The position numbers were made by a program, and so were the translations under genes. A stretch of DNA of 61,706 nt, counting the filler, from Sluysia triapertura (lineage: Eukaryota): assembly GCA_046118255.1 (NCBI GenBank). It is 5 parts of 5 records of this genome, joined end to end, with 100 filler letters (N's around TTAATTAATTAA, not from the genome) between each part and the next. Parts side by side here need not be neighbours in the genome. Positions count along the whole stretch, not along the records: positions 36,608 to 49,322 come from JBJNIA010087577.1; 4 more parts are not named here. The stretch is one strand, 5' to 3'. The notes beneath the pieces are model-generated. The model did not search any database and had not been told where the DNA came from. It saw only the letters and a list, made by a program, of their open reading frames with translations. Below, piece by piece: positions 17,200-49,322 of the stretch; the first letter of the stretch is position 1; each line of letters starts with the position of its first letter.

Positions 17200-18908
17200 G
17201 TGAGAAATAAACAGTTCAAAATGGAGAATGAATCTTTTGAATTTATAGAGGAATTTTGTGTAGATGCGTTGTCAGGTGTAGAAAATGATGTCGAAGGTGG
17301 AAATAAGATAAGTGCTAATAATGACAATGATGATTTCGTTGTTAGTGGCTGTAGAAAGAAAAGAAATTCAGATTCCAGTGAACGTGATGAAGATGTGCGA
17401 ATAACTGAAGAAATACGTCGATGGCCTAAGGAAGACAAAATTCCGGTCCTTGAGAAACTCAGAAGTAAAACAAGTTCTTGCGAATCATTCTTCCATTGAT
17501 GAAGTCACAAGTTTATTTTTTGGAAATAATTTTTTGATTGTCGTGAAACTCAAATCGTCATCAAAATGAAAATAAATCGAAAGCAACATGCCAGAACTAT
17601 AAAATAGCTATATATACAAAAAGTGAAAATATTTTTCGCTATTATTATTCTTTTTGGACACTTTTTCAAAACTTATGAATCAGAACAGATTTGAGCAAAT
17701 TTTACAATCACTTCATTTCGATAATAATGAATTACAACATGGTTCCAAATTCGACCCGTAATATCTTATTTTACAAAAAAATTTAAACATATTTATAAAC
17801 CAAACCAAGAAATATGTTTGATGAAGCTATGATTCCATGGCGCGGAAGATTAAGATTTAGGACATAATCCAGGTAAGATTGTGAGGTGGTGTGTGAAAGC
17901 ACTACCGGATATATTGGAAATATTGAAATCTATTCTAGACAGAGGAAACATTTGGATCAAACAATTTTTTTGTATTAGAGCCATATCTTGCACAATGGCA
18001 CCACATGTACCAAGATAATTAAGAAAGTAAGAATAAGTGGATCCAAAATCAGAAGAACTAACATTGAAACGATATGAAAAACATTTAAAGAAATGGTGAG
18101 ATTCTGCTCTTTTCACGGAAGGATAAAAGATTAGTTCATATACTTTCAACAATTCATGAAGCTCGAAATTATACTGTAAAAATTAAGCCTATTTGTATCG
18201 ACAAGTACAATGCTTTCATGAAAGGAGTGAATAGAACAGATCAATATTTATCATATTATTCAATACTCCGTAAAACACTCAAGTGGTCAAATAAGGTTGT
18301 TCACTGTTCAATTCATTAACAGTATGAATTGAATCATCCATCAGGACGATTGTTTGGGAATATGCGACTGTATATTATAGAGAAAATCGTCAACAGTAGG
18401 AAAAAATCCATGTAAGACATGCCATGTTTATAAGGCAAACAACAAGAGGAGCAAAACTCGGTACTTGTTTTCAAGCATGTCACACAAAAATACTAGAAGT
18501 AAAATTATATGTTCTCATAAAATTTAATAATGTATTATACTTAATAAATGTGTTTCGAAATTATCACTTTTAATTTATATAATTTCAACAAAATAAGCAA
18601 GAATTCAGGCTCTACGCTTTTCATCACATACCATTTTCAACTTTTATTTCTTTAAAAATATGAAAAAAGGGACAAAGTATTTGTCATATAGAAATAAATC
18701 TATTTTATTTTTACTTTTAATTTAAATTATGCATTTTTGTTTCGAAAATCATAAACACTACAAATATAAAAATTAATTGTAAATTATAAATATGTTATTA
18801 TTTAATATAATAACCATATTGTATGTAGGTTTTTCCCAATGCCAAGAATTTCTAACAAAAAATGATTATGTAATTGATACGAAATAAATTTATACGGCAT
18901 CGAAAAGG
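17200..18908 (+). mobile_element. Decayed piggyBac (PGBD4-like) transposon
   Basis: Acidic N-terminus; PNQEIC/DEAMIPWRGRLRF..NPGK; KPICIDKYNAFMKGVNRTDQYLSYYSILRKTLKW; C-terminal TCHVYKANNKRSKTRY. Probable right end GGCATCGAAAAGG|TTA at about 18908. Left TIR not found. Confidence 0.85.
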
Positions 18909-20505: not shown

Positions 20506-20763
20506 ATGTTTCCCGAAAATAAGACCTACTGTGATGTTTCAGGATGACTTTAATTTAAGGCCTATCTTAAAATAAGCCGATTAAGATATCTAATAAAAGT
20601 TAATTAATGACTTGAGACGGCGTTCAATGCATTCTTTAGCATATACTTCTGCATTTAAATTACAATACATTCTGAAATACTTTCATTGTTAAATCATTCT
20701 AGTTCACTTTCTGATTCTGAATGATTTTAACAAAATTCTGATTGTGATTCACTTTCAAACAAT
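20506..20763 (+). mobile_element. Left part of a pogo/Tigger-like non-autonomous element
   Basis: TGTTTCCCGAAAATAAGACC terminus with a second AAAATAAGCC subrepeat; 20655-20763 is homologous to 24168-24270. Confidence 0.55.
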
Positions 20764-23414: not shown

Positions 23415-24167
23415 TTTGTAACGATAAAATTTACAACTTTAATTCGAATTTTGAAAAGATATTAATCGTAATAATAATAATAATTCATGATGGTTAAATG
23501 AGATGAAAATGTTTATTTTTTGAATGAGTTTAATAGTTCGTTTAGTAGTTTGTGTATGTGTATATGGTTTTTAAATGATGAGTTGTGTTGGATTTTGTGA
23601 GATGAGTTATAGTGAATGTTTTGTGATGAATTGTGATTGATACCGAATGCCGAGTTCCCTACAATTATATTATTTAAATATTTTTGGTTAACGTAACAAA
23701 GAGTGATCACGATTACTACAAAATTCTTTCGTAACAATAACTTTAAAGAAACACTTTATAGTGATTTCTAAAGGTAAGACACTTAGTATTTAATAATTAC
23801 GTGGGACGTTTCCCACAAAACTATGTTAATAATAATAAAGAAAAATCAAATTTAATAACTGATATTAAATTAAAACAAAATTTATCACTTATCTTATTTT
23901 AATATCATAAAAATTAACAATGAAAAAATTAACAATGAAGCATGGATCTTCATACCATTGTGTCATAGTTGTTATTGTATTGTAAAATTTAGAAATCTTT
24001 ATTTTATACTCTTTCATCATCAAATCAATTCACGACCAAACAGTCTCTCACACAAATCATCCAAAATTCTTTCAGAATCAGACCGACAATAACAGCTTTG
24101 ACAACTTAAGTCGGTGTTCAATTCATTCTTTAACATAAATTTCAGTATTTAAAGCACAATTAGCTTT

Positions 24168-24622
24168 AAATTACAAAGCATTCTCAGATACCTTCATTGT
24201 CAAGGCATACTGGTTCATTTTCTGACTGTGACTGACTATAATTCTGATTGTGATCCACTTTCAGACAATTCTTCAAGTAAGATTTAAATAGAAATTATCA
24301 AAAATTTCTCCTTTGCTGAACAATAAACATGAGAAATTCTTTAAAAAAATGAAATTCACTTAAATGAAAACTCCGCAGAAACTTCGGAATCCAGTGACTT
24401 GCAAGACATTCCAGAGTGTGACGATATGGTTAGTGGTTTTTAAACATAAAACGCGTAATTCATTAGTAAATGTAGATCGGTTTTCATGTATTTTGTATAT
24501 TAAGAAATTTCATAATTCTCTACTTTGTAACTTTGATTTTCGATAGACAAAGGACATCCCAAAAAATAAGACTTAGTATCATATTTTAGAGTGAAAATTA
24601 ATATTTTCGCAGAAACATGGTA
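24168..24622 (+). mobile_element. Right part of the same pogo/Tigger-like family
   Basis: Ends TTTTCGCAGAAACATGG|TA, the reverse complement of the 20506 terminus type. Contains an AAAATAAGAC subrepeat and the shared internal block. Confidence 0.55.
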
Positions 24623-26777: not shown

Positions 26778-27408
26778 ATCGATTAAATAATCTTTGCAAT
26801 CAGTTGAATAAATTATGTAAAAAAGAATTTAAATTAAAATCAGCTTAAAATATAAAACAAATATAAAACTAAATTAACCGATTTATTCCTATTATAACAT
26901 CTATTCATGTAACCAAGCATTTTTTGGTAAAAAAATCCACAGTGTTTACCACTAATTTCCAGAGTACAACCGGAAAAATGTGGAGGTGATAGAAGATTTA
27001 AACTTACGCTCTAAATGAAAGAGCAAATATTAACAAAAGTGGATCTTGCCTTATATGTGTCTGAAACTTTTGGTATGGTTTACCATACATTAAACTGATT
27101 GATTTAGTAGAATAACCTTCAAATGTTTTTTGGATTGTTTTTTCCCTCTCATCAGCTGAAACTGTAATTTTTCTTATGCTCGGTGTAATAATGGTTGAAA
27201 AGTTTAGTGTTGCCTTATGGATGGTGGTTTTTTTTCGGAGTTTACATTGTTGTTATGTGGAAATAACATGTATTGTCTACTTTATAAATTTTTTTAACGA
27301 TGTTTTTATTTTTTAAGGTTAATTTATTTAATTTAAATTCTTTTCTACATAATTTATTTAAGTGGTAGCAAAGATTATTTAATTATTGCAAAGATAATTT
27401 AATTGATC
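26778..27408. repeat. Imperfect inverted repeat of about 80 bp around a 440-bp core (MITE/foldback-like)
   Basis: 26782-26859 aligns with the reverse complement of 27301-27384 (AAATAATCTTTGC...AATAAATTATGTA.AAAAGAATTTAAATTAAA). Confidence 0.7.
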
Positions 27409-42274: not shown

Positions 42275-43041
42275 ATGGATAAAGAATTGCAGGATATATA
42301 TAATGAATACATTAAATGGGACAAAGTGAGAATATTTTGATTAAATTTTAGCTTCCTTAGAATCCAGAAACAAGAAAAGAAATTGAGTCTATTAAATCAA
42401 ATGATGAATTACGAAAACTTTTAATAAAGCGACTTGTTTTTGGTACTGCTGGTATTCGAGGTGAAATGGGTTCTGGATATAATCGAATGAACGATTTAGT
42501 GATAATCCAAATCACCCAAGGTTTATTAGAAACTTGTAAACGTACAGGTAGTTCTAAAGGTGTTGTTATAGGCTATGATGCTAGAAGAAATAGTGAAAAG
42601 TATTTTAATGTTTATTGATATTTACATATTTTACGAATAGATGGGCAAAAATTGTAGCAAATATTTTTCATCGCGGTGGTAGAAAAGTTTATCTTTTTTC
42701 TGAAACAGTTCCTACTCCTTTTGTTGCTTTTTCTATTCGACACTTTAAAACTTTGTGTGGAATAATGATAACTGCATCCCATAATCCTAAGAATGACAAT
42801 GGATATAAAGTTTAGTTTGACTTAAATGTATTACTTTGATGTTTCAGGTGTATTGGGAAAACGGTAGTCAAATAATACCACCTCGTGATTCAGAGATAGC
42901 TAAAGATATTAAAAATAATTGTGAGCCTAGGGATAGTTCTTGGGATTATAAAAATGTGCAAAGTGAGGTTTTAGATCCATTAGAAGAAGTTGAAAAAATT
43001 TATTACGAAATGCAATATAAATTGCTCCATTGTCCGGATGT
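42275..43041 (+). CDS. PGM2: Phosphoglucomutase-2/phosphopentomutase, 5' exons 1-4 (42275-42325, 42361-42599, 42641-42809, 42848 to about 43041)
   Basis: The spliced frame is open: MDKELQ..KWDK|[59 protein letters not shown]|[14 protein letters not shown] introns of 35, 41 and 38 nt. 3' exons not found. Confidence 0.93.
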
Positions 43042-43059
43042 GTTAGTTATTTATTTACC

Positions 43060-43088
43060 TTAGGTCATTTTGTAAATAAATATTATTA

Positions 43089-43155
<67 letters not shown>

Positions 43156-43173
43156 TTAGGTCATTTTGTAAAT
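43060..43173. repeat. (TAT)n(TATT)n microsatellite flanked by an 18-bp direct repeat
   Basis: TTAGGTCATTTTGTAAAT at 43060-43077 and 43156-43173. Confidence 0.9.
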
Positions 43174-43569
43174 CAAAAAAAAGTTTTCATTGTAAGAAAG
43201 TGTCACTTTCTTGTTGGTACTCAAATAAAATAATTCTTTTTCTTACGTAAAAATATATTGAGTTCATGGTATTATTGAAGAAACTATAAGTTGAGTATGG
43301 ATGATAGTAAATCCATTTTAACAGAAGCTTCTGGGTGAAACTTATTATATGGCCTAATAAATTATTAACACTACATTTGATGAAAATTCTCTAATTAAAC
43401 AGAACTCACTTGAAAATATCACGCATTATATTAAAATTTCACAAAACACTGATAATTCAGTGTACGTGCATTATGAAATAATGCATATTAAATCATAAAA
43501 TCCGAGGATGCGGATTAAGGAAAAGGAAATATTCTGATCTGTAACCCAGAAAGTCTCATGTTTACTTTA

Positions 43570-43665
43570 CTAAATTTCGCATTGTCCTAAAACTTTTAAA
43601 AACAACTGCAAGAACCTAACAACATTCACGAATCACCTAAGAAACAAGCACAGTGTTTGTCCACA
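43570..43665 (+). mobile_element. BED zinc-finger remnant (hAT transposase N-terminus)
   Basis: SHCPKTFKNNCKNLTTFTNHLRNKHS. Confidence 0.5.
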
Positions 43666-43924
43666 ATAATTTTTGATAAGCTCCTGTGTGACCTCGTATT
43701 TAACAAGGCATATACTTTAAATGAGTGTGTATTGAAACACATCACTTTAAAATAAACTATTTTCAGTAATGTGAAAGCTTTCTTTCAAGCATTTATAACT
43801 GATTTATAACACTTGATACACATTGGTAAAATTTGACCATATTTTGGACAATTAATTCAGGTAATCACTGGTTATTACTCGTAAATAATATTTTTGAATA
43901 TTATTTTATTGTACCTTTATTTCT

Positions 43925-43970
43925 ATGATAGGCAATCCGTGACTTGCGAGCCACATGTCTTGTCTCTATA
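43925..43970 (+). mobile_element. hAT-Charlie-like terminal remnant
   Basis: GGCAATCCGTGACTTGCGAGCCACATGT resembles Charlie-type subterminal sequence. Confidence 0.4.
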
Positions 43971-45270
43971 GTATAGAGTCTATATTTTTACCTCTGATTT
44001 AGAAGTCATTAGTTATGAAATTAGAAAGCAAAAATTATATTAATACTTTCTTTTTGCTTTCTTATATAAACTATTTATATACATATTATGTATTATTTTA
44101 TTGATATTTAAATATTTTGTAACTTGTATTACTATGTAATAAAAAAATTTAATGTGATATTCTGTATTAGTCTATGTTGTCCACTCCTTTCTGCACCAAG
44201 ACTCGAACACTGAAATGCTTTCAGATTTCTTTATAATAAGTGACTTAATTTTTCTAATTCACTTATTCGTATACAGTTTGAATCGTTTAATTATCGTTTA
44301 ATTATTTACACAAAATAGATATACATATTATAGATCATTTACGATATCAACGGAATCATAAATCGAAGTTTTTAATGAACTTAACATTAATGTGAGAATA
44401 GCACTGTATAATTAATTTTATTAGGAGAAAGTTTGCCCTTGTAACTGTTAAACCGAAGAATCATATCCTTGTTTACCGCAAGAAGATCTCAGTATTATCT
44501 TTCAACAATTTTGGGACCTAATTTACCAAAGTAAACTATCTAGAATTAAGAACATACTGAGCAAATAAAATAAGATAAGAAGTTTTTCGAAGATACCTGA
44601 TTATAAAATGTTTATTGGAGTAGGTACACGTGACCAAATATAAAGTGAAGAACATATTTTTAATCATTTTAATTACTGCTCTGTACGGTCATTTATCCAC
44701 CTTCTTTCTAGGCATTCTCATTTTAAAGGAAAATAACAGTTATAATTTTTTATTTCTGTGATTATTGATCTGGACGAGAATAATGTGTCTTAATGCTTGT
44801 ATTTCATACATTTTATAAGCTTTTGGTTATCTTTGTTTAATCATCGGCAGAAGAAATTTCAATAAAACCTTCATAAATTTGGTGTTAACGTATATTTAGA
44901 GTGGTGTAGATATATTTCTGAAATTCGAACTATTTAATCTAGAACAAAATATGTGGTGATGTTACAAAATCTAAGAAATTTACGACCACTATTAAAAAAG
45001 AGTTTTCGCAATTCAAAAACGCAAAAGCTACAAGATTATTTTCTTATTTTATTTAGTGATTGTAATAGGCTTAATCTTTTCGGACTTAGTATTTGCTTGT
45101 ATTTTGTATTTGCATCTTGATAAATTATACTATTATTACTTAGATTCATTTAATTTTTTATTTTATCTGCTTGTTTATTAAAAGCAAAATGTATTTCAAC
45201 GTATTTAATTCCGCAGTTCTTATTTCGTTAATTACACTTTATATAAATAGTTGTTATTGGCTTGACTTAA

Positions 45271-45479
45271 CCCCTATCACTCCAATCGCTTTAATACTGC
45301 CAAGCTAAAGCCAGCGTTCTACTTTCTTGTACTCCTTTCTTGTGTTTAGTCAACATTCTTACTAATAAAAAACTACCTCATAAAATATACGCAGCGTCTT
45401 TTTTAATCACTTCAAACTTAACAGAATTTGTTTGGAGTTGGTTACCAATCACTCTGTAAAATTCTTGGAATGACAAGGG
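45271..45479. mobile_element. 209-bp piggyBac-type MITE
   Basis: TTAA|CCCCTATCACTCCAA ... TTGGAATGACAAGGG|TTAA; TIRs match 12/15; TTAA TSD. Confidence 0.8.
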
Positions 45480-46231
45480 TTAATTCATTTCATAGATATT
45501 TGTGTTTATTTTTGAGATATTTTCTTGTAGATTCAAAATATAAACTACTTAGTTTATATGAAAAATCATAGAATTTCTATGAAATTTCAGATAATATCCC
45601 TAATTTACATTCATTTTTATAAATATTTTAATATGATGTTAAAAGCTTATCAATAAAAGCTTATTGATTATTCAAATACGAAATGTATTTTTCTAGATTT
45701 AAATTATGATGAATAATTTTACTAGGTATTTTATTTGGGTTCACTTTTAATCAGTGTTTCATATCCTATTTGGAAGAAGCCGACATAGGATTTAGTAGAA
45801 TGCAAATTAAGTTTAATATAGAGGGTCTCTAATTTCTTTCAAAAAGATATTAGCGAGCTGTAACTGATGTTTTATTTTTCCATGTAATCAGTTACCTTTT
45901 CAACAATCGTAAATTTTTGTACAAACGTTATTCTTAAAGTAACTATTAGTATGAGAGGTATTTTTTCTTTATTAATACTTCAAAACTAAGTTTCTCTTTA
46001 ATATCAATAAATTCACTCCAAACAAATTATTAAATAATTAAATGTATTATTACAGTGCTGGGTTTTTATAAATACTTTTGCAAAAATATTTTTATCTGAA
46101 GAGGAGTTCACCTAACAGATACGACTTATATCTGGCCGAAAGCGATCTATTAGGGTTCTAATGTACTAAATGAATTTACTAATCGAAGCGTTACACTACG
46201 CTTAACAAAAAACATAAATTAAACAAATTGA

Positions 46232-46556
46232 ACTATCCAGATTATGGTCTAGTTTCTAAATCAATTAAGCTAGCCGGTTATGGTCTAGTGTAAACGTTAA
46301 TATATTTTGGAGATATTAAACTTTAAACTAGCCTTATTAAGGTCTAGTAAATCTATCAATAATTTAGTTAAATTTATAAAACAAAGTAAAACTACAAAAG
46401 TATATTATGTAAATGGTCAGTAAAATATACAAACGTTAACGCAAAATAAAAGTATAATAAAGATAGTGAATTTATAAAGTCACTGAAGAAAGAGACCTTT
46501 CTTAGCAACTATGTAAAGTTTAAAAATTAGATTGAACAAGCCTATTAAGGTCTTGT
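46232..46556 (-). repeat. Array of four bulged hairpins with compensatory changes
   Basis: Copies at 46232-46253, 46269-46289, 46327-46348 and 46536-46556. Confidence 0.8.
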
Positions 46557-47488
46557 ATATGATTATATGATTTTAAGTTTATTTTTTATACTTATTTACA
46601 TGGTAAGGATATAAAAACTTAATATAAAACAAATTACTTGATTTCATATAAATTGTTAAAATTATTCCAATGCTATAATTAACTTTCTCAAAAGAATTTT
46701 TTTGTGTGTAATTAAATTAAGTCCATAACTATTTATAGTCCAATCAGTCACTTTTGTAATACGTGTTTATTTTTTATTCTTTTACTTTATTTAAACAAAT
46801 GAAATATTTTATAATTTTATTTTGAAATAGATTTATCATTTAATTTTTTATGTTATATTTTAAGTTAGAAATTATTTTATAAATTCTTTTTTTGCATAAA
46901 ATTAAAATAGATTATAAAATTTAAATTATTCTGTATTTTATAAATTTTGAATTCTAATTTTGTAAAATTAAATATAATATTTATAAAATTAAATATACAA
47001 ATAAAAAATAATGAAAAGGTGAAAATTATTTACTCCTTAATTGTTCATGATAAAAATAAATATCGTTCTTACAACAGGAATACAATACAATGAAAGAGAC
47101 TCGCGCATAACAATTTAATTCGATTAATTAGGGTGAGTTGTAATGATAGCGGATCACCGAGTTTACACGTTACCACCAATTTCGATTATAAATTAATCAA
47201 TAATGTCAAAATATCGTTATTGGCACATCGATAGGACTGCTATATATTCTTGGTTGAATTGAAATATTTTCAGAAATTAAACTAATCTACGTGAATATTT
47301 ACTCCTTTATCTTTTTTGTGTGTGTTCTATTTGTGTTGCTCTTTTATAAAATTATTCTGATACATTAATATACAGAGTTTATTATACCATAAAATTTACA
47401 CAGTAGAACATAAAATTTATTACATTGTATAGAAATTATATTCCCGTAATTTCAAGTTACTATTTATATATTAATATATTTTAGTATA

Positions 47489-47864
47489 CAATTTATTATA
47501 GATGCGACATTACATACAATGTTATCATTTCATGTAATTTTACTGCATATTCTTTAATTTAGTCATTTATTTATTCAGGCGATAATTTATTTCAATAATT
47601 TTAATAAATTAATAGTAGTATAACAATAATTTAATTCATAGTATAATTCATTTGGTAGTATAAACAACAATAATAATAGTGGTATAATTTAATATATATT
47701 AATGTTTTAATATGCAATTTATTATACGTATGATATTACATACAAAATTATTATTTCACACACATTCTTTAATTTAGCTTTATAATTTATCAGACACTTA
47801 TTAATTCAGACGATAATTTATTCCAAGCATTTTATTCATATAATAGTATTATAACAATAATTTA
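47489..47864. repeat. Diverged direct repeat pair of about 150 bp
   Basis: 47489-47635 versus 47715-47864 (CAATTTATTATA...ATTCAG.CGATAATTTATT...TATAACAATAATTTAA). Confidence 0.75.
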
Positions 47865-49322
47865 AATCAATCTCAAACATAATTCAAACATATAATTTAA
47901 TTACGCTGATGAATTTATGAATTATATAGGCTCAAGTTTAAATTTAATAATCGTTCTTTGAAAAACTTAGCTTAATTTTGGATACTCTCTCGTGTGAATA
48001 AATTTAAATATAGTAATGTACTTGCAAAGAATGTAAACAATTAAACTCTTCGATGCGAACTTTATCAATATGTATTCTCAATTTTCAACAATAATTTAAA
48101 CTTATACAAAATGAAGAATTTTAAAGTCCCTTAATGATTATCTTATCTTAACAACTCTTTATTTTCTTGCTTTGTAAATAATCTTTATGTTTAATTTATA
48201 TTAAAGCGTGACCTGGAATAGAAACGCAGATAAACTTATCTTTGATTTGAAGTGAATTTTAATCTATTCAACAAATACAATTGAATTCTTTTGTTACTAA
48301 AATTTTCTTTTATTATATGCAAGTTTAATTTATATTCTCCTTTTTAACTCTACCATCAAAAGAAAACAAAAAAAATAACTAAATTAAATTCAATAAAATT
48401 TTATTTATTACAAGATTTTGTATTGGTAAATATGTATGTATTTTTTTATAATAAAAACAATCAAATGACAGTATTGCTATTTTAACAAAATTAACCACAA
48501 AAAGTTTTATTTACAAAAAATTTATGATTACGTAAAATTTAAATATAATATTAGTAATTAACACGATTAATTTATTATTTTAGTGCAATTATCCAAATAA
48601 CAATAAGGATTACTCGCAAATATTAAAGTAATTGCCATATATATATCCTTCAATTCTTGTAACAAGCCATATATATCCTCCTACTCTTTCTTTAAAAATT
48701 TGTAAGTCTCAATTTTAATTAAATCTTGTTCTTCTGCTCCTTGTGCGTATTGTAATATTTTTATGCAGTATTTATATCGGAAATTCCATTAATATAAATT
48801 CTATTAATTGCTAGTTATATAAATTCAACATATATAAAATTAATAATATTTTATAATTTACCTACGTCAAATATTTACACTATTAAATTTTGTAAATTCA
48901 TTTAACTTGTCTATCGTTATAATGTCAATGATTTAATTTTTACATAAGCACTATAATATTAATACACTAAACTTAATAAATAATAACAATCACTGTTTAC
49001 ACTATTAAATATTTACACTATCAATATTTACACTATTAAATTTTTTATTCATTCGTAATTTAAATGTANNNNNNNNNNNNNNNNNNNNNNNNNNNNNNNN
49101 NNNNNNNNNNNNNNNNNNNNNNNNNNNNNNNNNNNNNNNNNNNNNNNNNNNNNNNNNNNNNNNNNNNNNNNNNNNNNNNNNNNNNNNNNNNNNNNNNNTA
49201 AAGTGCCAATTTTCACTATACAATATTACCTGACCATATTAAAGGTTACTGTAATAAATCTATAATATATTATCGCATTTCGATTATAACTAAACATGCA
49301 AAATATCTGCATTCATAAATTA

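Follow-up and report, generated by a model that had tools for sequence, protein, structure and literature searches.

A high-copy dispersed repeat of Sluysia triapertura with a row of single-bulge hairpins, possibly the RNA module of a non-autonomous mobile element

Background

Within a 61,706-nt stretch of Sluysia triapertura DNA made of five joined parts (the window), an earlier note had described four short stem-loops with a bulged A, which it took for repeated protein-binding structures (of Gag/nucleocapsid or ssDNA-binding type) and compared with the MS2 coat-binding hairpin. This raises the question of what kind of sequence carries such an array, on which strand it would act, and whether the shape of the hairpins rather than their letters has been kept.

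The window is 77% A+T and has almost no long reading frames. A phosphoglucomutase-2 (PGM2) gene (gene region 42275-43173) is represented by three exons at 42361-43040 (Pfam PGM_PMM_I) with introns of about 40 nt, covering residues 1 to about 225 of about 600; its best named relatives are arthropod proteins (50-51%) and its exons are read in the standard code, with no need of a ciliate code. Because of its genes, the window is regarded as animal DNA. The array lies 3 kb behind the last recognisable PGM2 exon and is not demonstrably intronic. Right after this exon, an 18-nt duplication (43060-43077 and 43156-43173) surrounds a TAT/TTAT microsatellite, like a short retro-insertion. Further relics and repeats in the window include a reverse transcriptase (8484-8675, E 0.0013), a leucine-rich repeat (14106-14396, E 1e-10), a piggyBac-type transposase (18089-18316, E 5e-5), a 160-nt repeat in two copies 71% alike (20610-20763 and 24104-24269), a MITE-like pair of inverted 80-nt arms (26782-26857 and 27304-27383; 84% alike) on either side of about 450 nt, and, at 47463-47869, a segment of about 226 nt that was duplicated in tandem long ago (77% alike). 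A weak QRICH1-domain match on the minus strand (44055-44231, E 0.0012, below the curated cut-off) is possibly the relic of a tyrosine-recombinase-derived gene.

Results

Four copies of one bulged hairpin

The four hairpins were found with the sequences previously described, on the minus strand of 46232-46556, with their 5' ends at 46556, 46348, 46289 and 46253, that is, four bulged hairpins within 325 nt. Their constant core consists of the bulged A, two C-G pairs and an A/U-rich loop of 6-7 nt. A geometry scan without G-U pairs (5-bp stem, bulged A, CC, 4-9 nt, GG), whose pattern was set post hoc, returned five sites in the whole window, four of them the array hairpins, and among 5000 dinucleotide shuffles of the 325-nt stretch 4943 contained no site, 56 contained one, a single shuffle contained two and none contained three or more. 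Column identity among the four hairpins is 83%, therefore they are copies of one unit. A plain minisatellite, the alternative that the earlier note had named, is disfavoured, given that no tandem array occurs at the site and that the spacings are 36, 59, 208 and about 50.

Paired positions had been said to co-vary, and double changes do occur in two of the eight pairs, each confined to one copy, with 3 of the 32 cells non-pairing; the covariation score of 0.208, however, was equalled or exceeded in 35 of 500 shuffles, and covariation on the four hairpins alone is thus suggestive, not significant. The proposed CCA/TGG variant is present in the copy at 46253 alone; the copy at 46289 has A.C there. 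The TAA loop start said to be invariant is shared by all four hairpins but differs in the fifth hairpin described below.

Run across the window, a covariance model built from the four hairpins recovered these alone, the next best score being 14 bits (E 1.5). The conserved block at 46095-46154, which is probably the '27-bp motif' mentioned earlier, likewise occurs once in the window, and no second array was found there. Rfam searches gave no match at E<=1 in the window and three chance matches on 45950-46850 (E 0.57-2.3). Exact motif scans, two each on viral and on metagenome contigs, yielded a single match, in one of the metagenome scans: a 12-bp tandem repeat of bacterial origin, unrelated to the array and located ahead of a gene that probably encodes a regulator. 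Phage records matched at chance level only. The bacterial repeat (1487-1550 of its contig) lies between probable acyl-CoA-dehydrogenase-like and GntR-type regulator genes, labelled by eye, and perhaps represents multiplied operator sites.

The array is part of a high-copy dispersed repeat

Other copies were sought in contigs of one public DNA run that contains the stretch; this run may be the source sample, and hence not independent, and may include contigs of other organisms. Over the region 45400-47400, 1,019 contig pieces were aligned at a likeness filter of 80%, of which 75 were at least 99% alike, 146 were 95-99%, 295 were 90-95% and 503 were below 90%. Summed contig depth reached 1295-5289 in bins of 46070-46404, 164-460 in 46405-46605 and 75-248 in 46606-46739. 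Relative to a single-copy reference, an exact and unique 700-nt contig over 45400-46093 with a depth of 17.4, these values correspond to ratios of about 260-710 at the block, 120-540 at hairpins 3 and 4, 12-38 at 46485-46594 and 6-10 at 46721, all of them rough ratios rather than copy numbers. The pieces gather on three of the hairpins and on the block, and cover falls from the block end, which is the 3' end on the minus strand, towards the TATA end. The largest number of distinct contigs at one place was 78, sharing one letter at 46120, and the longest contig pieces extend to 46738 and 46776.

Loose ends of contigs cluster at 46095 (16 of them), 46154 and 46316, and joints between conserved units skip 34-123 nt, a pattern of conserved islands and variable spacers. 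The spacers had been called largely unrelated; this is so within the studied copy, but the array as a whole forms a single member of a repeat family. To the left of 46095, the letters of the loose ends look by eye like the A/T-run flank of the studied copy, and homology may extend about 30 nt further to the left. Taken together, the array belongs to a high-copy dispersed repeat of about 0.7 kb, from 46095 to about 46776, of which the studied genomic copy is decayed. Its parts, from the TATA end to the block, are as follows.

46095..46776, minus strand: high-copy dispersed non-coding repeat, one decayed copy (depth, loose ends; left edge about 46095, longest pieces to 46776)
46730..46737, minus strand: word TATAAATA, which resembles a TATA box, is putative in function and precedes the first hairpin by about 120 nt
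46587..46611, minus strand: hairpin 0, a fifth bulged-A/CC-GG hairpin, decayed in the studied copy (majority letters of other copies)
46536..46556, minus strand: hairpin 1 (RNA fold -7.6 on minus, -7.7 on plus; z -3.4 and -2.7)
46478..46510, minus strand: extra hairpin of 14 bp that differs in shape from the others and contains U.G/G.U pairs in tandem on minus (folding)
46412..46421, minus strand: half site, a 5' arm with A-CC and no matching 3' arm (sequence)
46327..46348, minus strand: hairpin 2, all 8 of 8 pairs Watson-Crick
46269..46289, minus strand: hairpin 3, outer pair imperfect in the studied genomic copy only (majority letters, folding)
46232..46253, minus strand: hairpin 4, one G.A mismatch below the bulge (sequence, folding)
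46186..46203, strand unassigned: small spacer hairpin, perfect 6-bp (folding)
46095..46154, minus strand: conserved 60-nt end block (contig depth, folding)
46111-46154, minus strand: outer stem of the block, 9-10 bp, with a U.G pair on minus (folding)
46135-46143, minus strand: inner 3-bp mini-hairpin of the block (drawn after seeing the majority differences)
46097-46110, minus strand: 4-bp hairpin of the block (folding)

The right arm of the small hairpin at 46186-46203 was also found in the joint letters of another copy, and the half site is a possible sixth hairpin, since lost, which the letters of other contigs do not support. The TATA-like word is common here (0.79/kb in the window). About 440 nt upstream of it, a CpG-rich patch (47100-47260) contains CCAAT and ATTGG words that face each other at 47176 and 47219. 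Contig cover is scant or missing over parts of 47075-47400, an observation that was kept out of the evidence. On the other side of the repeat, a second high-copy repeat occupies 45400-45483 and continues further left, with a depth of 2420 and 23 loose ends at 45483; next to this edge, an acceptor-like word on the minus strand (45462-45455) is followed by a Cys-containing reading with no Pfam match, and a CCCH finger considered at 45390-45460 was unsupported by protein or domain searches.

Letters of the other copies

Majority letters that differ from the studied copy were analysed at 40 of 262 positions, each in more than about half of the depth and unphased. Twenty-one of these 40 lie within 46095-46611, seven of them at positions paired in the drawn stems, and none falls within 46724-46740, around the TATA-like word. 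Five majority letters create a Watson-Crick pair that is absent from the studied copy (46141, 46289, 46590, 46594 and 46595). The letter at 46289, in hairpin 3, is present in 1866 of a depth of 2019 and in 49 contigs. Those at 46590, 46594 and 46595, found in 88-96% of the depth and in 6-7 contigs, each give Watson-Crick pairing where the studied copy has a mismatch or wobble, and they reveal hairpin 0, with the geometry of hairpins 1-4; their joint share is at least 0.77 of the depth. Both hairpin 0 and the mini-hairpin of the block were drawn after the differences had been seen.

The lower stem of hairpin 0 is unrelated to those of hairpins 1-4, and we regard it as the strongest sign that shape, rather than lower-stem sequence, may have been kept. 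Among the differences analysed, hairpins 1, 2 and 4 carry no majority substitution, against four in the 37-nt spacer 46290-46326. In the long stem of the block, the differences at 46120 and 46145 break one pair. Stems that are perfect in the majority of the family indicate an ancestral structure; they do not by themselves demonstrate ongoing selection. As for the proposal of repeated protein-binding structures, the high-copy family and a fifth hairpin that keeps the core speak for sites of kept shape in a mobile-type element, while the binding and the selection are what we infer.

Which strand is functional

RNA folding was strong on both strands for hairpins 1 and 2 (z -2.7 to -3.4), better on plus for hairpin 3 and weak for hairpin 4. 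The block folds to -15.5 kcal/mol on minus (z -1.88) versus -11.7 on plus (z +0.16), and the extra hairpin at 46478-46510 to -12.3 kcal/mol on minus (z -3.67) versus -8.0 on plus. Three minus-strand G.U pairs (46116/46149, 46481/46507 and 46482/46506) show no majority change among the differences analysed and, together with these better folds and the upstream TATA-like word, lean towards the minus strand. Leads for the plus strand are the DNA folding of hairpins 1-4, equal or slightly better on plus in four of four, one G.T pair in hairpin 3, and a C-GAA-G triloop formed by the plus strand of the block once 46141 carries the majority letter; C:G-closed d(GNA) loops are especially stable (PMC3201870). 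One copy had been said to pair better on plus; this copy is the one at 46269-46289. Of the two G.T pairs that it forms on plus only, one occurs in the studied genomic copy alone. Strand bias over 80-nt windows did not exceed background (sd 4.1 kcal/mol), and overall we estimate the minus strand to be somewhat the more probable of the two.

Searches for a known carrier class

Neither a tRNA head nor an A-box plus B-box pair was detected near the element, and T5-T6 runs occur inside its minus strand; because of these features, the element does not qualify as a standard Pol III SINE. Neither a poly(A) tail nor one of short repeats follows the block, and no target-site duplication rose above chance, the longest (9 nt) being reached in 72 of 300 random zones; in an old copy both may be eroded. 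Terminal inverted repeats were at chance level. TA-CAGTG and CACTG-TA words at 46051-46062 and 44398-44408, which resemble Tc1/mariner ends, point in opposite, outward directions, and a search for partner ends gave none.

Helitron1 elements have 5'-TC and CTRR-3' ends, an AT site and a hairpin apart from the CTRR (PMC13085455, in excerpt). The studied copy reads A|TC at 46094/46095, but 16 records diverge exactly there, and CTAG occurs within the stems and is missing from hairpins 0 and 1. HINE and Helentron elements insert in TT without duplication, with which the T-rich letters to the left of 46095 on plus may be compared, and the 60-nt conserved structured end is a feature common to stringent LINE/SINE tails and Helentron-type right ends. 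The element was not filed under SINE, HINE or LTR because a defining feature of each was absent from the studied, decayed copy.

Several other identities were tried and rejected. The block of the studied copy resembles the 5' end of U2 snRNA; three majority differences move away from U2, and there is no Rfam match. A hammerhead reading of 46096-46158, made by eye, leaves stems I and III unformed, and the majority letter at 46141 breaks its GAAA. A telomerase-template word at 46150-46157 lies within a stem, at the edge of conservation. A putative cargo gene in 45483-46050 showed no stop-codon depletion (55-142 of 200 shuffles were as good) and no protein match in searches of single frames, the widest of which covered one minus frame only, and one tested frame was probably not the best.

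Discussion

A possible RNA module and its alternatives

The best explanation we can offer, possible but held with less than even confidence, is that the array and the block form the minus-strand RNA module of a non-autonomous mobile repeat, made of protein-docking hairpins and a 3' recognition structure. The minus strand would be transcribed from the upstream TATA-like word, and the five hairpins would dock several copies of one protein on the element RNA, binding through the bulged A and the CC/GG pairs, a read-out of shape that would leave the lower stem free to change. The 60-nt end block could then serve as the 3' signal for the reverse transcriptase of a partner retroelement, with mobilisation by target-primed reverse transcription and 5' truncation. 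Stringent LINEs and their partner SINEs are mobilised via a 3' stem-loop bound by ORF2, and UnaL2 requires one bulged nucleotide (both from excerpts of PMC4176376). The fall of cover from the minus-strand 3' end is as 5' truncation would give, although the 80% likeness filter acting on long divergent spacers could give it too. Against this module stand the TATA region, common to several contigs although a transcript from that promoter would not carry it, the lack of a tail, of an above-chance target-site duplication and of a Pol III head, the block-stem pair broken by 46120 and 46145, and the absence of strand bias in the 80-nt windows. A bolder formulation, which we think unlikely, sees hundreds of copies of a natural array of operators: on an RNA of about 600 nt, five bulged-A hairpins of exchangeable stems would load one specific protein multivalently, in the manner of engineered MS2-loop cassettes, and would be joined to the conserved end. 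Such an element or scaffold RNA would stand for a class that is new and non-autonomous in the former case, without a Pol III head, Helentron or LTR ends.

On the plus strand, the same features could belong to a non-autonomous rolling-circle element of Helentron/Helitron2 type, whose single-stranded DNA hairpins would show a bulged T to an HUH transposase and whose terminus would be the block. We consider this doubtful, if somewhat less so than the operator array. The 60-nt conserved end has the size that defines Helentron and HINE right ends (PMC4067079 and PMC7492417, in excerpt), IS608 TnpA binds a single-T-bulge hairpin on one strand (excerpts of PMC2924686), and the T-rich letters before 46095, the triloop of the block, the plus-only G.T pair kept in hairpin 3 and the DNA folds agree with it. 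However, none of 33 words from 46084-46159 had a 12-nt inverted partner in 46600-48200 better than in shuffles, the best being matched by 11 of 40, although the far end of the element may be lost; the TAGACC word of the block and hairpins runs in the same direction rather than inverted; Helitron ends, as far as the excerpts of PMC13085455 describe them, have one hairpin each and no internal array; and the three G.U pairs favour minus, with no RepHel relic found nearby. Closest to the earlier note, and quite unlikely in our view, is a 5' module of an LTR-type or gene-capturing cassette, in which a promoter and a leader with packaging-type hairpins would precede an exchangeable cargo after the block. 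The order of TATA, hairpin array, block, 600 nt of single-copy DNA and another high-copy block, which ends at 45483 and carries an acceptor-like word, fits such a cassette. The packaging signal of an LTR element lies behind an LTR (TG...CA, with a 4-6-nt duplication) and a tRNA primer-binding site, and retroviral zinc knuckles prefer exposed G. None of 12 TGG sites is like a primer-binding site, the five TG...CA pairs with flanking repeats all have merely 4-nt repeats, 12 frames of 43200-46050 and 46800-49050 gave no Pfam match to gag/pol or their relics, the putative cargo lacks stop-codon depletion and protein matches as given above, and the loops are almost G-free; the Gag/nucleocapsid part of the original proposal is thus not borne out.

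Two further readings dispense with mobility or with function. The repeat could be a host multi-copy non-coding RNA gene family of about 600 nt, transcribed by Pol II, that would scaffold or sequester an RNA-binding protein and of which most pieces would be retro-pseudogenes; the TATA region in few contigs against abundant 3' parts, and five same-shape sites beside other conserved hairpins, would suit it, but the lack of an Rfam match, the varying spacer length, the units skipped between copies and the repeat-rich context speak against it, and we consider it very unlikely. Equally improbable to us is a quasi-palindromic unit without current function, duplicated in an old repeat, with arm changes made by hairpin-templated repair. 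The 83% identity of the four units and their non-significant covariation are in keeping with it, and the bacterial repeat, unrelated as it is, imitates the hairpin owing to the self-complementary CTAG. Hairpin-templated repair tends to erase a bulge, yet the bulge is present at all five sites; moreover, the arms of hairpins 1 and 0 are complementary without being direct repeats, the units are conserved against varying spacers, and no tandem array was detected.

Novelty and meaning

Rfam gave no match to five single-bulge hairpins in a row that share one shape and leave the lower stem free, and no description was found in literature searches of titles and of passages of PMC11410931 and PMC13085455; the element family could be contained in the sub-terminal repeat tables of PMC4067079 and PMC7492417 or in the repeat libraries on which PMC11410931 is based. 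Structured ends of non-autonomous elements are already known; the array of five same-shape hairpins belongs to an apparently undescribed high-copy structured repeat. If the protein-docking RNA module is real, hundreds of natural variants would provide a ready covariation data set and a defined bait with which to find the protein that binds; a further orthogonal pair of RNA tag and protein, a new one, might also come of it. Should it be a rolling-circle end or an ordinary retroposon body, it would interest mainly repeat specialists.

Comparison with known systems

Excerpts of PMC4176376 describe the 3' tails of LINEs and SINEs (ZfL2-1/-2, UnaL2) as structured ends of dispersed repeats, in which stem shape and bulge matter and the end is the most abundant part, as it is here; unlike them, the element has five hairpins upstream of its end, and no repeat tail, duplication, Pol III head or partner LINE was found with it. 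With HINE and DINE-1 non-autonomous Helentrons (PMC4067079 and PMC7492417, in part) it shares its non-coding nature, high copy number, stem-loop end of about 60 nt, variable repeated interior and T-rich flank, but it lacks a pair like the 11-15-bp sub-terminal inverted repeats given there, and its interior consists of bulged hairpins and unrelated spacers instead of tandem satellite monomers. The sub-terminal imperfect palindromes of IS608 (IS200/IS605), with one hairpin per end and a Y1 transposase (PMC2924686, in part), differ from five same-direction hairpins without a transposase, whereas the plus-strand unit resembles them as a short DNA hairpin with a single bulged T and a strand-specific shape. 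The MS2 operator needs a four-base ANYA loop (part of PMC10380284), and the loops here measure 6-7 nt if the upper stem is taken as CC/GG and 4-5 nt if it is taken as three pairs, with UAAU and UAAC as the 4-nt readings, so that the MS2 geometry first proposed holds for the single-bulged-A stem on minus and, with no ANYA loop, is a loose analogy of shape only. Unlike leviviral operators, the array lies in an animal nuclear repeat without a coat gene; like the MS2 operator and that of Qbeta, which also has a bulged A (PMC10380284 and PMC11724954, both in part), each of its units is a short hairpin in which one bulged A on the 5' side lies beneath a short upper stem and the stem letters are exchangeable.
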